NCBI GenBank assembly: GCA_964565225.1
Contig: CAZMEL010000007.1
Span: 439-64,438 of the forward strand
Length of the DNA: 64,000 nucleotides
From: an uncultured Thermoanaerobaculia bacterium
Lineage (GTDB): Bacteria; Acidobacteriota; Thermoanaerobaculia; Multivoradales; J023
Reading direction: 5' to 3'
In this document: positions 49,852 to 62,565 of the stretch, piece after piece
Numbering within the stretch: position 1 is the stretch's first letter
How the letters are laid out: each line of letters begins with the position of its first letter
Position numbers and translations under genes: made by a program
The notes under the pieces: generated by a model
Database searches by the model: none
Told to the model about the DNA's origin: nothing
What the model saw: the letters and a program-made list of their open reading frames with translations, nothing else

Positions 49852-51930
49852 TCAGTTTCGGGGCGGGAGATACTTCACGTAGATCCGAAACAGGAGGTCG
49901 TGGGGACGATCCATATAGGTCCGCGAGAAGAGCAGGAGCCGGCGCAGGTCGGTGTTGTTGGGTGCCACCTCCAGAACCTCCTGCATCTTGTCGGCGGCGC
50001 TCAGGGCGTCGCCTCGCTGCAGGTCGGTCAGCGCCAGGTTGTAGTAGGAGTCGATGATCAGCGACTCCACGTCCTTGTTCTCGGGCTCGGACTCCCGCAG
50101 GCGCCAGAGAGACGGCAGGATCTCTGCGTACTCCCCGGCGCGAAAACGCTCGAGCTGGGACTTCAGAGGCAGGAGATTGGTCGCGCTCTCGATCTTCAGA
50201 GCCTGATCGCTGGCCTCCAGCGGCAGGATCTTGGCCGCACGATCGAATAGCTTCTGGGCCCGGATGAACCGACGCTGGCCATGGGCATCGCGCGCCGCGT
50301 CGAGCAGCACCTGCCAGCGCGCGACCTGCTCCTGCGATGGCCCGGAGGCGGTATCGTCCGCCGGAGCCTCCACCAGAGCCTTCCACTGAGCCACCAACGC
50401 CTGCGCATTCTCGTAGTTGGGATCTCCCGGCTGAATCCGCTCCAAGAGGTTGATCGCGTTCTCCGTCTGGCCGCCCTCGTGCATGGTCGTCGCCTTCTCG
50501 ATCGGGTCGACCTGGCGCAGACCCGGGGCCGGAGGGGCTTCGGCCTGGTTGGGGAAGAGATTGTCCCACTGGCTCGCCAGGAACGCACCGCCACCGATGA
50601 CCAGCACCGAGACCAGAGCCCCTAGCAGCACCAGCTTGCGATCGGTCCGTTTGACCACGACCACCCGGTCGCGCTCCACCGCCGCTTCCATCGATGGGCT
50701 CTCTTCACCACCCGCTGCGAGGCCCAGATCTCCGAGGTCGGTATCGTCGGCACCTTCACTGGTGCTGGACGAAACCGAAGGAACCTTGCCCGCTTCGAGC
50801 TGCTGCAGGTAGTCCCTGGCGATGGAGTGGCTCTCTTGCAGCTCCAGAACCCGCCGCAGGCTTTCCTTGGCCTCCTCGAGCGATTGGCTCTCGATATGGC
50901 CCACCGCCTCGTGGAAGACCTCTTCCGCCTGGCGCTCGATCTCCGCCTTCTTGCTCCGCGCCTCTTCGATCAACCCCGAGGCTTCGGCATTGTCGATATC
51001 GATCAGGAAGATCCGCGACCAGACGTCGATCGCCGACTGGTACTCGCCGCGATCGAAGACCTCCTTGCCTTCCGCCAGGAGCTGGGCGATCCGATCGCCG
51101 CCCTCTTCTTCGCCACCGGCATCCACGGGTGCCGGCGGCGGTTCCTCGGCCACCGGTGGCGGTGGTGCTGCCGCCGGCTCTTGGGACTCTTCGAGCGAGA
51201 AATCGTCGAGCAGGAAGTCGTCGGGATCGTCGGCGATGGGTTCTTCGGCCGGCTCCTCGTCTGCCAGCTCCCCACCGATCTCGTCCCGGAGATCGAGCGG
51301 CTCTTCGTCTCCGAAGGTCAGAGGTGTCTCCCCCGTGTCGAACGACAAGATGTCGGGGGCGGAGTCCGCAGGCGGCGGGGGCGCGGCAGCCGGAGCCGGG
51401 GGTGGCGGAGCCGCCGGAGGCGGAGCAGCAGCCGCCTGAGGAGGCGCCGCGGCGACCTGCGCAGAGGTCTGGGAGAGCAGCTGGGTGAAACGCAAGACCT
51501 CCGGGTGCTCGGGGTCGAGAGACCTCGCCTTCTTCAGGTTCGCGTTCATCTCTTCGAGCTGTCCGGCCTCCCAGGCCTGGCTCGCAGCCTTCAAGAAGGC
51601 TTTGATGTAGGACTCCGATTCGAGCTTGGTCTGCGCCGCCTGGACGATGGCCAGGGCTCCCGCGTCGCTGCGAATCGCGTCTTGTTGCGTCTGAGCGATC
51701 TGCAGAATCTGCTGAAAATTGCGCTTCTCGAACAGATCCTTCAGCATCGCCCCGAGGCCGCTGGCAGCCGCCGCGGCAGCAGGCGGTGCTGAGGCCCCTT
51801 GGGCCGGCGATCCGGCGGTGGCTACGGGCTGTGGATCGTCGAATCCCAGATCGTCGAGATCCTCGAGCCCTTCCAGGTCGTCGAGGGCATCCAGATCGTC
51901 GAGATCATCGAAATCGTCCAGCTCGGCCAT
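49852..51930 (-). CDS. Large TPR/helical-repeat membrane protein with acidic and Pro-rich linkers
   Basis: TPR-like units (GKEVFDRGEYQSAIDVWSRIF; YYNLALTDLQRGDA); one TM near aa 490; DDL-repeat N-terminus. Confidence 0.75.
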   Translation of the reverse strand: MAELDDFDDLDDLDALDDLEGLEDLDDLGFDDPQPVATAGSPAQGASAPPAAAAAASGLGAMLKDLFEKRNFQQILQIAQTQQDAIRSDAGALAIVQAAQTKLESESYIKAFLKAASQAWEAGQLEEMNANLKKARSLDPEHPEVLRFTQLLSQTSAQVAAAPPQAAAAPPPAAPPPPAPAAAPPPPADSAPDILSFDTGETPLTFGDEEPLDLRDEIGGELADEEPAEEPIADDPDDFLLDDFSLEESQEPAAAPPPPVAEEPPPAPVDAGGEEEGGDRIAQLLAEGKEVFDRGEYQSAIDVWSRIFLIDIDNAEASGLIEEARSKKAEIERQAEEVFHEAVGHIESQSLEEAKESLRRVLELQESHSIARDYLQQLEAGKVPSVSSSTSEGADDTDLGDLGLAAGGEESPSMEAAVERDRVVVVKRTDRKLVLLGALVSVLVIGGGAFLASQWDNLFPNQAEAPPAPGLRQVDPIEKATTMHEGGQTENAINLLERIQPGDPNYENAQALVAQWKALVEAPADDTASGPSQEQVARWQVLLDAARDAHGQRRFIRAQKLFDRAAKILPLEASDQALKIESATNLLPLKSQLERFRAGEYAEILPSLWRLRESEPENKDVESLIIDSYYNLALTDLQRGDALSAADKMQEVLEVAPNNTDLRRLLLFSRTYMDRPHDLLFRIYVKYLPPRN

Positions 51931-52049
51931 TCTCTTGTGTCCTCTCGGAAAGGGTCCCGTTCATCGACTGCGCTCGGTCCGAAAGATGGCTCGACCCGAA
52001 GTCGAAGGGCTCACGAAACGCCTGCTCGGGGTCGGCGAGGTGTGCCTAG

Positions 52050-52207
52050 TGTAGTGCGTCACGAATCTGGCGCCTTGTCTTCGGGCCCTCTCGCGCTCTG
52101 TCGGCGTTGCTCCTCCTCGAAAGATCCCCGATCTTCCTGTGTCGGAGCGCCTGGACAGGACACGAGATGACCTCGAATCCAAGGCACCATCTGCGGGACG
52201 CACTACC
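52050..52207 (-). mobile_element. 158-bp palindromic MITE/REP-like element flanked by CTAG direct repeats
   Basis: GTAGTGCGTC/GACGCACTAC terminal stem plus further nested stems; G-U pairs on the minus strand; CTAG at 52046-52049 and 52208-52211. Confidence 0.65.
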
Positions 52208-52279
52208 CTAGTCTAGCAAGATTTCGGGCGCCGATGGTCGCAAGGCGGGAGCGAGCCACGCTTCGTGGATACGGGGTTT

Positions 52280-53728
52280 TCACGGATCGAGATCTCGTGT
52301 CCGCCCGGATCGGCCGCTGGCGAAACCTTCGAGCAGGCGGCGGGGCAGGCCTTCGAAGGATCCCGAGGACATGGTGACCACCACATCTCCCGGACGGCCT
52401 TCGGCGAGGATGGTCTCGAGGGTCTCTTCGGTGCTGCCGGTGGTCCGAGCTTCGACCCCTCGCTCGCCGAGCGCCTTCGACAGGGCATCGAGATCGAGCC
52501 GCTCTTCGTCCGCGAGGCGACCGGCGTGGAAGATCGGAGCCAAGAACACGGCATCGGCTTGCGCGAAACCCCGGAGGTAGGCCTCGAAGAACATGTCGCG
52601 ACCGCCGGTGAGACTGCGCGGCTCGAACGCCACCACCAGCCTTCGATCCGGATAGGCCTGGCGCAGACCCTGGAGCGACTTCTCCACCGCCGTGGGGTGG
52701 TGAGCGAAGTCGTCGACGACGGTGACGCCGTTCGCGGTCCCGAGGGTCTCCAGCCGCCGCTTGACTCCCCGGAAGCTTCCCAGGGCCGCCGCCAGGTCCC
52801 CTGCCGGCAAGAGGTCGTGACGCCCCGCGGCCCACACCGCCAGCGCGTTCGTCAGGTTGTGCTCCCCCGGCACCTTCAGCAATACCTCTACGTCTCCGGC
52901 CTCCGGATCGGCGAGCACGAAACGAGAGCCGTCGGTACCGGCCCGGAGGTCCCTGGGAAACACATCGTTGTGGTCACCCAGGCCATAGAAACACACCCTG
53001 CACCTCGCTCCCTGCGCCACCTCTCGCACCTCCGGCGCATCCCCGAAGGCCACGAGCAAGCCGTCGGACGGCAACAATGCCACCAGCTGGCGATAGGCGC
53101 TCAGCAGCGCCTCGGGGGTCGGATAAAGATCGGCATGGTCGTATTCGACACTGGTGAGAATCAGGGTGTGGGGCAGGTAGTGCAGGAACTTGGGCCCACG
53201 GTCGAAATACGCCGCGTTGTACTCGTCGCCCTCGATCACGAAGCGCTCTCCGCCACCCACCCGGAAGCTCTGGTCCAGGTCTTGCGGCACACCGCCGATC
53301 AGGTACCCGGGGTCGGCCCCGCACCGCGAGTAGACCCAGGCGGCCATGGCCGTGGTAGTGGTCTTGCCGTGGGTGCCGGCCACCACCAGGGGTTTGCGGT
53401 CGGACAACAGGAACCGGGCCAGGGCCTGGGGCATCGACACCTGGGGCAGCTCCTTCTCGCGGGCCGCCGCGGCCTCGCGATTGGTCCGCGGAACCGCATT
53501 GCCGATCACCACCAGGTCGGGATGGGGCTCGAGATGGCTCGGGTCGTACCCCACCATGGGCTCGATCCCGGCCGCCTCCAGCAGAGTGCTCATCGGTGGG
53601 TAGAGAGGGCCGTCGGAGCCTCGGACACGGTGTCCGAGAGCCCGCAGCAGGCAGGCCAAAGGAGCCATTCCCGTACCGCCGATCGCGACGAGATGGATGT
53701 CCAAGCGAGAGTCCGAATCCGGAGACAT
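52280..53728 (-). CDS. mpl: Mur ligase, Mpl/MurC family (murein peptide ligase)
   Basis: IGGTGMAPLA, GSDGPLYPPMS, VAGTHGKTTT, EGDEY, DHADLY, DDFAHHPTA. Confidence 0.88.
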   Translation of the reverse strand: MSPDSDSRLDIHLVAIGGTGMAPLACLLRALGHRVRGSDGPLYPPMSTLLEAAGIEPMVGYDPSHLEPHPDLVVIGNAVPRTNREAAAAREKELPQVSMPQALARFLLSDRKPLVVAGTHGKTTTTAMAAWVYSRCGADPGYLIGGVPQDLDQSFRVGGGERFVIEGDEYNAAYFDRGPKFLHYLPHTLILTSVEYDHADLYPTPEALLSAYRQLVALLPSDGLLVAFGDAPEVREVAQGARCRVCFYGLGDHNDVFPRDLRAGTDGSRFVLADPEAGDVEVLLKVPGEHNLTNALAVWAAGRHDLLPAGDLAAALGSFRGVKRRLETLGTANGVTVVDDFAHHPTAVEKSLQGLRQAYPDRRLVVAFEPRSLTGGRDMFFEAYLRGFAQADAVFLAPIFHAGRLADEERLDLDALSKALGERGVEARTTGSTEETLETILAEGRPGDVVVTMSSGSFEGLPRRLLEGFASGRSGRTRDLDP

Positions 53729-62005: not shown

Positions 62006-62081
62006 GGCGCATTCGTCTAGGGGTCCAGGACGCCGGCCTCTCACGCCGGTAACACGGGTTCGAATCCCGTATGCGCTACCA
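62006..62081 (+). tRNA. tRNA-Glu (anticodon CTC)
   Basis: 76-nt cloverleaf: GGCGCAT/ATGCGCT acceptor, CCGGC-CTCTCAC-GCCGG anticodon arm, TTCGAAT T-loop, encoded CCA. Confidence 0.97.
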
Positions 62082-62182
62082 CCTCCCCCCCTTCTTCCAA
62101 GGCTCCAAGATCCCGCTGCAGCCTGAACGTTTCAAAATCTGGCATTGCCATGGGCAGAATTCCGTGCTCCTGCATCCGCTTA

Positions 62183-62339
62183 GGGCTCGGAACGGAATAA
62201 GTGTCTCGCCGAGGGTGCTGAGGCGCTCTGCTCGCAAGGCGCGCGACCGAGGCAGACTTGAAGTCTGTCGCAGGGAGCGCAACGCAGCGAGCGGAGATGC
62301 ATCAACGCCCGCAGGAGACACTTGTTTCGTGACGAGCCC
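62183..62339 (+). mobile_element. 157-bp palindromic MITE/REP-like element, TTA (or CTTAG) direct repeats at both ends
   Basis: GGGCTC/GAGCCC ends, 16-bp ACGGAATAAGTGTCTC/GAGACACTTGTTTCGT stem with two G-U pairs, further nested stems. Confidence 0.7.
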
Positions 62340-62565
62340 TTAGGGTCGGCGTAACGCTGTAGCTTCATGAAGATACGGTCTCGCAACAGGAGCCTGGTGC
62401 ATTTTCCAGGTTAGGCATTGCTTTTGAAATCACTCCGAAGAATCCTGCGTCCTTTCCTCCCGAGTCGCGACTACATCTCCGGGAGAGGCGGCACGCGCTC
62501 CGTTGCCGGGCCGGCGGCGGGGTGACGTGCTGCTACCATCGATGGCTGCCGAAGAGACTCGAAAG

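Follow-up and report, generated by a model that had tools for sequence, protein, structure and literature searches.

Hairpin-forming MITEs are known as Correia/NEMIS in Neisseria, ERIC/IRU and YPAL in the enterobacteria and Yersinia, Nezha in cyanobacteria, QMITE in Coxiella and MITEPsy1 in Pseudomonas syringae. Their transcripts fold into stable hairpins, and in ERIC the central inverted repeat has also been described as conserved. MITEs are usually viewed as decayed insertion sequences, with an interior that is free to drift and a range of about a genus. The elements described here resemble these hairpin MITEs in being short (100–300 bp), non-coding, multicopy and mostly intergenic, and in having terminal inverted repeats and a short, TA-containing target duplication. 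The known hairpin MITEs are each found within one genus or family and are conserved in sequence, whereas the present family has a module that occurs across at least seven phyla, terminal repeats that are exchanged between lineages, covarying stems, fixed unpaired bases and a bias towards folding on one strand. No sequence similarity to those MITEs was seen. MITEPsy1 duplicates CTAG or YTAA (PMC3189936).

Three other groups of structured elements invite comparison. REP/REPIN sequences are likewise short, non-coding, highly repeated and conserved as hairpins, and REPINs are thought to be processed as single-stranded DNA; a REPIN consists of two inverted REP units of 20–25 nt with a GTAG/CGTC-tagged stem, has no target duplication, and is linked to a single-copy RAYT gene. 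Integron attC sites (60–140 nt, with functional unpaired bases) share with the present family the imperfect palindrome, the conservation of structure over sequence, the better folding of one strand and the unpaired bases; they carry R''/L''-L'/R' boxes (RYYYAAC...GTTRRRY) at the base of the stem, a variable apex, and lie in cassette arrays beside an integrase. The hairpins of IS200, IS10 and IS50 are short, family-specific and located upstream of the transposase gene in autonomous elements.

Two hairpin elements in the window

The window (the whole 64,000-nt stretch of DNA analysed here, from an uncultured Thermoanaerobaculia bacterium) contains two long, imperfect hairpins, E62 and E52 (Table 1), and these are its two strongest inverted repeats. 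The arms are 29–38 nt long and 79–83% complementary. Long palindromes had been reported at both places in the initial annotation, with ends carrying CTTAG/TTA (E62) and CTAG (E52), and both descriptions are borne out. The folding energies of the sense strands listed in Table 1 correspond to z-scores against shuffled sequences of -9.5 for E62 and -10.3 for E52, compared with energies of -91.3 kcal/mol for the minus strand of E62 and -79.4 kcal/mol for the plus strand of E52. E62 is preceded on its 5' side by a tRNA-Glu(CUC) gene (62006–62081, +) and followed by an ECF sigma factor gene (+, called product from ~62581); E52 lies between an mpl/murC-type ligase gene (52280–53728, -) and a gene for a TPR protein (49852–51930, -). 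Both elements are in the sense of their flanking genes. Matches of the encoded proteins assign the contig to Acidobacteriota, class Thermoanaerobaculia, with seawater metagenomes as the source. The open reading frames listed over E62 and E52 are spurious overlaps, and the elements encode nothing.

Table 1. Coordinates of E62, E52 and their parts in the window.
Feature	Position	Strand	Description and basis
E62	62183-62339	sense +	complete MITE-like element, 157 bp; inverted-repeat arms; hairpin -111.5 kcal/mol on +
E62 left target-site duplication	62180-62182		TTA; sequence reading
E62 right target-site duplication	62340-62342		TTA; sequence reading
E62 left terminal inverted repeat	62183-62207	+	GGGCTCGGAACGGAATAAGTGTCTC; GGG...GAATAA(G) shape common to other class I ends
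E62 right terminal inverted repeat	62315-62339	+	inverted-repeat analysis
E62 core hairpin	62226-62296	+	covariance-model match, 59.7 bits; encloses the core first annotated at 62235-62287
E52	52049-52208	sense -	complete MITE-like element, 160 bp; hairpin -102.4 kcal/mol on -; insertion relative to L001 and L002
E52 CTAG, one end	52046-52049		duplicated TA at 52047-52048; filled versus empty site
E52 CTAG, other end	52208-52211		duplicated TA at 52209-52210; filled versus empty site
E52 core hairpin	52093-52163	-	covariance-model match, 70.1 bits; encloses the core first annotated at 52102-52154
E52 outer arm / terminal inverted repeat	52049-52083		lineage-specific; inverted-repeat analysis
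E52 outer arm / terminal inverted repeat	52174-52208		lineage-specific; inverted-repeat analysis

Resemblance of the two cores

A core shared between E62, read on the plus strand, and E52, read on the minus strand, had been proposed in the initial annotation, and a search pattern of 19 specified bases was taken from positions in that core (AGGCGC-N2-3-GAC-NN-AGG-N25-26-GCAACGC). Within the window the pattern occurs only at 62237–62285 (+) and 52104–52152 (-), and it was found in 0 of 100 shuffles. A profile made from the sequences of other genomes alone matched the window at E52 (E = 4e-12) and E62 (E = 8e-8), the next match having an E value of 8.8; the best match of the covariance model elsewhere in the window scored 14.7 bits. 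Aligning the two elements over their full length does not help to judge significance, because identity is about equal in either relative orientation. That equally good alignment in the opposite orientation, and the halving of the number of independent matched positions by complementarity, are what can be said for two unrelated GC-rich palindromes that resemble each other by chance. Against such a coincidence stand the shuffled controls, the more than 100 matches embedded in hairpins of other genomes, and the fact that a profile free of window sequences picks only the E62 and E52 sites; a chance resemblance of the two cores is excluded.

It had also been stated at the outset that the element could not be assigned to a named family, and this agrees with searches of Rfam 15. 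In the window the gathering score was reached by tRNA-Glu only; up to E = 10 no match overlapped E52 or E62, and near E62 there were only the tRNA and weak matches within it. Sixteen loci from other taxa gave no Rfam 15 match overlapping the core. No name for the family or description of it was found in the open-access literature, searched in full text by topic and by sequence strings and through MITE reviews, with ISfinder outside the scope.

Structure of the core

A structure of 26 base pairs was drawn by hand and evaluated on 109 distinct sequences. Paired bases filled 84.3% of cells, compared with 25–43% when partners were slid by 1–3 columns, and the covariation score was 0.468 versus 0.138 ± 0.007 after shuffling (reached in 0 of 500 shuffles). 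Both sides change in 18 of the 26 pairs, and RNAalifold broadly agrees with the drawn structure. The change from C-G to A-T at the base of the apical stem, noted earlier between the two window copies, is one instance of this family-wide covariation.

At its base the core has an outer stem of up to 10 bp, followed by an unpaired (C)AA opposite a 3-nt AAC bulge and then by two G-C pairs. The middle is a 5-bp GC-NNN/NNN-GC stem in which the NNN positions covary (GCC/GGC, CGC/GCG, TCC/GGA), leading to an internal loop rich in G.A oppositions (5' GA-C-GCA, 3' GAG-GA). The tip is formed by an apical stem of 7–8 bp, with a G.U at its second position, and a loop that is free in sequence. At the conserved pair 28-45, 61 sequences have G.U and 17 have G-C. 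Because the alignment was collected with a pattern that fixes nineteen positions, those positions are bound to be invariant; beyond these, five columns are at least 90% conserved (C10, C45, A47, G49 and G62 of alignment A6). Copies of the E62 type have an additional conserved asymmetric loop (5' GAGGCGC opposite 3' GGATG(G/C)AT), those of the E52 type have GGyCATy...GAGGGCC in common outside the core, and in a second, diverged module type CAAGGCG...GAGCAACGC is retained and encloses a GAGGAGGAGG/GACGACGAG interior.

Similarity to other genomes covers approximately 62210–62317 of E62 and 52081–52176 of E52, and is limited to the central 96–108 nt; the outer arms of both elements had no match among 120 fetched loci. 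Across the family the outer arms vary by lineage, and a central module of about 70–100 nt is conserved across at least seven phyla. The earlier observation that the arms of E62 and E52 are unrelated in sequence yet both pair agrees with this lineage-specificity. A core that recurs across phyla with compensatory double changes and fixed unpaired bases indicates purifying selection on a fold.

Hosts, ends and forms of the family

The 19-base pattern was run over one genome per bacterial species and gave at least 119 loci. Nearly all matches lie inside hairpins of the same design; about five have no hairpin context and look like chance. Among the matches listed, the hosts are Acidobacteriota (Thermoanaerobaculia, Terriglobia, Vicinamibacterales), Pseudomonadota (alpha, beta and gamma), Desulfobacterota, Myxococcota, Planctomycetota, Gemmatimonadota and Binatia, at least seven phyla in all. 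BLAST against plasmids revealed further MITE copies in Burkholderia, P. aeruginosa, Azotobacter and Halomonas. The family of structure-conserved elements supposed in the initial annotation exists, with lengths of ~157–165 bp, as these loci and the covariation of the core show, and it is mobile and widespread.

Members with recognisable ends measure 156–177 bp and belong to two end classes, the ends being paired in 49 members. Class I ends have the form GGG(C/T)(T/C)CG...GAATAA... and are accompanied by a 3-bp duplication of the TNA type, usually TTA. The arrangement TTA-GGG(C/T)TCG...C(G/A)A(G/C)CCC-TTA is seen in E62 and at loci L023, L044 and L114; the triplet varies among copies and is equal on both sides of any one, being TTT/TTT in L063 and, by eye, apparently TCA/TCA in L011 and L053. 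The 3-nt flanks matched in 5 of 49 elements, versus 2% in a control with mismatched flanks. Class II ends read GTG(T/G)NC(C/T)GT... (TG... if the duplication is taken as 4 bp) and lie in CTAG with the TA repeated, E52 included. A duplicated TA is present in 14 elements, at least 12 of which have CTAG...CTAG at their ends; the CTAG-flanked copies do not distinguish between a duplication of 2 bp (TA) and one of 4 bp (CTAG).

Longer and shorter forms also occur. A two-module form of 265 bp with GGGTCTGTT... ends and TA duplication is found in Stutzerimonas, Pseudomonas, Azotobacter and Halomonas, and Burkholderia has a related two-module form of ~290 bp, also with GGGTCTGTT... ends and TA duplication. 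In all two-module elements (nine loci, probably three lineages) the modules point inward (-> <-). A form of ~115 bp is present in ~60 copies in a Chromobacterium-like assembly.

Insertion sites and transposon class

Unoccupied sites had been suggested as a check on mobility, and such a site was found for E52, but no clean one for E62. Loci L001 and L002 contain the orthologous mpl-TPR interval (Mpl 88–89% identical) with an intergenic region ~150 nt shorter. Both hold the site TTGCTAGACTAGGCACACC, also read as ...GCTAGACTAGGCACACC... and ...AATCTTGCTAGACTAGGCACACCTCG..., which equals the window sequence minus the 160-bp hairpin and one of the two flanking CTAGs. Because these two loci carry its unoccupied site, E52 is an insertion that duplicated TA (or CTAG). 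For E62, locus L006 (sigma factor 88% identical) is without the element yet is missing a larger stretch, 62152–62436, and so does not count as a clean empty site. E62 is present, with one SNP, in strain L004 (99% identical).

E62 and E52 are two copies of a MITE-like transposable element, non-autonomous and ~160 bp long, given their size, terminal repeats, matched but variable duplications, empty site, copy number (see below) and lack of coding capacity. Association with a transposase carrying the same ends or core, which had been put forward as a further check, was not found in the fetched loci or in the PLSDB plasmids. Neither ~0.97 Mb of fetched loci nor the PLSDB plasmids contained an autonomous element with the same ends, and searches with the terminal repeats through the fetched loci returned noise only.

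Three candidates for a parent or partner were set aside. The transposase beside a core in L095 (DDE_Tnp_1/DUF772) comes from a separate IS5 copy, which has ends of its own, GGAAGGTCTGAACAAG, and has duplicated CTAA; no other IS5-like ORF was present in the fetched loci. At L118 two modules lie 1.6 kb apart and proved to be two complete MITEs flanking housekeeping genes. An origin from Tn3 was suggested by ends of the form GGGTCTG...; TIMEs (Tn3-derived miniature elements) have 38-bp GGGG... ends and a 5-bp duplication, and in L023, L044, L034 and L066 the 5-bp flanks are unmatched while the 2–3-bp flanks match.

DDE transposases are normally directed by terminal inverted repeats with a 2–3-bp duplication, and in the present family the terminal inverted repeats and duplications sit in or at the outer arms, which the initial annotation had treated as pairing partners, not in the core. 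Members of the IS5 / PIF-Harbinger superfamily make 2–4-bp duplications at TA, TNA or YTAR. The family resembles IS5 in its 2–4-bp duplications at TA/TNA/CTAG sites, in ends that begin GG or GGG, and in a subterminal ...GAATAA(G) similar to the GGAAGGT(C/G)(T/C)GAA(C/T)AAG of IS5-type ends, as in the IS5 copy of L095; it is unlike IS5 in having no transposase gene, so that membership would be by end shape only. Since an autonomous partner was not found, the transposase family is judged from end shape and duplication length alone, and the 2–3-bp TA/TNA/CTAG duplications and the GG-initiated ends with subterminal GAATAA(G) make the IS5 / PIF-Harbinger superfamily the likeliest source. For the CTAG-flanked class, the source could be IS630 (TA at CTAG), the IS5 group (YTAR) or even an element with IS3-like TG...CA ends. 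IS5 makes a 4-nt YTAR duplication. ISPsy19 (IS5 family, 3-nt duplication) and MITEPsy1 provide a precedent for 3–4-nt duplications at CTAG/YTAA (PMC3189936).

Strand bias and gene context

With the sense strand defined by the core, the sense strand was more stable than its complement in 104 of 116 whole elements (mean -89.3 versus -78.1 kcal/mol), and still in 98 of 116 when the core was replaced by a tetraloop. For the outer 36-nt arms alone, the sense strand folded better in 39 and the other strand in 11 of 51 clusters with unrelated arms (binomial p ~9e-5). The initial annotation had remarked that both window cores read on the strand favoured by G-U pairs; the folding energies concur, and the same holds for the family and for the arms. 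A folding bias of this kind implies that pairing is maintained in one single strand, either RNA or DNA.

Orientation relative to genes was obtained from a crude call of the coding strand on each side by GC3 phase, with which a still cruder ORF method agrees. The arrangements of genes around elements (E) were -E- in 28 cases, +E+ in 16, +E- in 11 and -E+ in 10, which is about random or slightly antisense; the sense orientation of both window copies is therefore not a rule of the family, and a shared orientation with host genes, which would have hinted at an RNA function, was not found. Comparison of all ORFs within 3 kb of the 119 listed cores against each other yielded no recurring neighbour protein, only spurious ORFs on the repeat and generic families. 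Many copies adjoin stop codons, as expected if most TA-containing targets of a GC-rich genome are stop codons or lie between genes.

These results bear on the idea of a structured RNA that serves the host and is repeated incidentally, such as an sRNA gene, a transcription terminator, an insulator, a 3' hairpin that stabilises mRNA, or a site for RNase III. Very stable hairpins, covariation and a G.U bias typical of RNA, many copies directly after stop codons, and the sense orientation of E62 and E52 would all suit such a role. The orientation across the family does not, nor do the lack of a conserved gene association, presence or absence that differs between close relatives, terminal repeats and duplications that show mobility, a hairpin without a following U-tract, and the lack of a match to any Rfam family; we regard a host-serving RNA as unlikely.

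An equally improbable account is that the hairpin is moved as single-stranded DNA by an HUH enzyme (of the IS200/IS605 or REP/RAYT-REPIN type) or a tyrosine enzyme (integron attC or Xer-like) that recognises the folded core, CTAG or TTA being target plus element end. The strong one-strand bias over the whole hairpin would be in keeping with this, as would the conserved unpaired bases and fixed G.U pair and arms that keep pairing and not sequence, and at the palindromic CTAG a duplication is indistinguishable from target plus end. Triplets that vary among copies yet match within a copy (TTA, TTT and, by eye, TCA) are however the pattern of a staggered cut, and the inverted repeats extend right to the termini. 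GTAG/CGTC-tagged REP units and RYYYAAC...GTTRRRY boxes are absent; unlike REPINs the family has a conserved apex, target duplications and no RAYT nearby, and unlike attC, which is conserved at the base of the stem, its ends are GGG... or GTG... with TA or TTA flanks and its neighbours are housekeeping genes. Beside the copies no gene for a RAYT, a TnpA-Y1 or an integrase recurs, although such enzymes act in trans.

The bias might also be a functionless mutational footprint on an ordinary MITE, left, for example, by deamination of C to T, either on the non-template strand of a promoter within the element or on a strand exposed in hairpin extrusion, with the core conserved through recent spread. 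Strand-biased C-to-T change would give the observed excess of G.T over A.C, and MITE copies are young and related, so descent can explain features in common. Such a footprint is hard to reconcile with compensatory double changes across phyla in 18 of 26 pairs and fixed unpaired bases, with a bias in 39 of 50 scorable independent arm lineages, with an orientation that is about random to genes and so probably to replication, and with conservation of the G.U at pair 28-45 itself, and we consider it very unlikely.

Proposed function of the module

The reading we prefer, with a probability of roughly two in three, is of a non-autonomous MITE superfamily that is moved in trans by a DDE transposase and carries a conserved, strand-specific module acting in single-stranded form. 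The transposase would cut and paste the elements by recognising the terminal repeats of 20–35 bp, and these repeats would differ among lineages because the transposases differ. A one-strand bias has no reason under DDE cut-and-paste of double-stranded DNA, and that part is unexplained. The initial annotation had taken the core for the recognition site of a trans-acting transposase, nuclease or RNA-binding protein, a role that is putative. The conserved unpaired bases of the core and the one-strand bias fit a putative site bound in single-stranded form, and the fetched loci yielded no partner protein. The central module may act single-stranded, most likely as an RNA read inward from the end of the element or alternatively as one DNA strand exposed during replication or transposition, and it would be bound or processed by a protein to the benefit of the element rather than the host; service to the element is suggested because the orientation to host genes is random and the module travels with exchangeable ends.

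The two-module members offer a parallel with the left-end stem-loops of IS200 and the protection of IS10 and IS50 from outside transcription, in that their modules read inward from each end. Such an arrangement would be expected where a structure encounters transcripts that arrive from beyond the element. The inward modules suggest that these forms may derive from both ends of a parent element, where a module would meet transcripts or strand opening from outside; unlike the IS200, IS10 and IS50 hairpins, the family has no autonomous parent among the elements found.

MITEs as a kind are known. New, within the scope of Rfam 15 and the open-access literature, is the combination of a strand-specific structured core, deeply conserved over at least seven phyla, with ends that can be exchanged. 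Conservation lies in the interior, the transposase-facing ends are swapped between lineages, and a conserved interior points to a selected function that is carried by the element or needed for it. The module could serve as a site for protein binding or processing, as insulation against transcription from outside, or as a single-stranded transposition substrate. It is possible, although we would not bet on it, that the module represents a new class of functional structured nucleic acid spread by MITEs across phyla, either an RNA (protein-binding, self-processing or regulatory) or a folded DNA strand used as a transposition substrate. If the folded-DNA reading is true, elements with terminal inverted repeats and target-site duplications would move via a strand-specific single-stranded intermediate. 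The cultured hosts (Stutzerimonas stutzeri, Chromobacterium, Burkholderia, Desulfosarcina and Azotobacter) make the question directly testable.

Copy number in assemblies and metagenomes

Many MAGs contain several copies of the family per genome, and in the Chromobacterium-like assembly ~60 contigs carry the element or end in it. Contigs diverge at the terminal repeats, with sharp boundaries in the Stutzerimonas form and also in the Chromobacterium-like assembly. Among RNA runs, none had the window locus; the Stutzerimonas and Chromobacterium forms were found in unstranded contigs, which are informative on copy number and boundaries. The family breaks metagenome assemblies and inflates ORF calls in GC-rich MAGs, and it marks recent insertion polymorphism between close strains. 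In three seawater source metagenomes that hold the locus, the summed contig depth over E62 was 8–13x that of the unique flanks. Other contigs in the seawater metagenomes match only 62231–62301 and then diverge, having the same core with different arms. One metagenome variant combines T62259C with A62262G, a compensatory pair in the apical stem.

The spacer between tRNA-Glu and the sigma factor gene

In a relative with an 88% identical sigma factor (L006:1-400), ~20 unrelated bases stand in place of window 62152-62436, the region 3' of tRNA-Glu that contains both E62, a 157-bp MITE-like hairpin element, and a second repeat. This comparison marks the tRNA-sigma factor spacer as a hot spot for lineage-specific insertions. 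The left flank of the second repeat is the right-hand TTA of E62, which is common to both. The over-representation of the second repeat in metagenomes exceeds that of E62, with summed depths in the source seawater metagenomes X1 and X3 of 86-139 vs 5-8 and 263-475 vs 19, respectively. It is also found, with ~8 differences, internal to metagenome contigs of 0.75-13.8 kb, and it had no match among 120 fetched loci. Its sequence is unrelated to that of E62 and begins GGGTCGGCGTAACG, resembling a class-I end (GGG...-type with a 3-bp duplication); an inverted counterpart of this end was not found within the repeat.

Within the E62 core, a 99%-identical strain (L004:9598-9762) has the substitution G62273A (GCAGGGAG to GCAAGGAG) in the 3' internal loop, an allele also present in metagenome contigs; it brings the core closer to the CAAGGAG form of the Chromobacterium-type copies.

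Coordinates of repeats, reading frames and neighboring elements
Feature	Location	Length	Remarks
Second small repeat	window 62343-62407	~65 nt	directly after E62; TTA at 62340-62342 and 62408-62410
Mechanical ORF through hairpin	window 62071-62343 (+)	80-90 codons	
Mechanical ORF through hairpin	window 62076-62321 (-)	80-90 codons	
Mechanical ORF through hairpin	window 51961-52203 (-)	80-90 codons	
Two-module form	L034:3097-3361		
Two-module form	L130:6001-6265		
Two-module form	L129:2452-2739		
IS5-group element	L095:2803-4076		Chromobacterium amazonense; ends GGAAGGTCTGAACAAG; CTAA duplication; DUF772 and DDE_Tnp_1 transposase

Assembly breaks and spurious reading frames

A Logan contig of the near-identical strain (L005:1) breaks at about window 62382, within the second repeat and ~40 nt past E62, and numerous other contigs likewise terminate at family members; such repeats thus break up assemblies of both metagenomes and transcriptomes. 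In other MAGs, members of the family also yield spurious ORFs, which resemble one another in clustering and ORF comparison, and frames of this kind spanning the hairpins could be mistaken for small conserved hypothetical proteins.

Two-module form and viral contigs

The conserved central core hairpin, or module, occurs twice in a 265-bp form (~290 bp in Burkholderia), in which the two modules are inverted and point inward, the second being a diverged copy that retains GGCAAGGCGCGAG...GAGCAACGC. In Pseudomonas aeruginosa PA83, a conjugative IncP plasmid carries one two-module copy between CoA-transferase and acyl-CoA dehydrogenase genes. The 19-base pattern built from the core common to E62 and E52, its 160-bp relative, had a single exact match in 2.9 million viral contigs (L131:1858-1907; IMGVR_UViG_2565956523_000006); the family is essentially absent from the IMG/VR collection.

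Insertion sites

At many loci (for example L013, L018, L036, L104, L105, L108 and L128), GC3-rich ORFs flanking the elements often stop 56-59 nt from the core, exactly at the terminal CTAG/TTA, a pattern suggesting that family insertions frequently either exploit a stop codon in the neighboring gene or provide it with one. The insertion point of the IS5-group element in L095 lies within a few bases of a family member's terminus, and the site is a mobile-element pile-up at TA-rich targets. An IS3-type OrfA frame at this locus, recognized by eye only, is apparently truncated by the family member.
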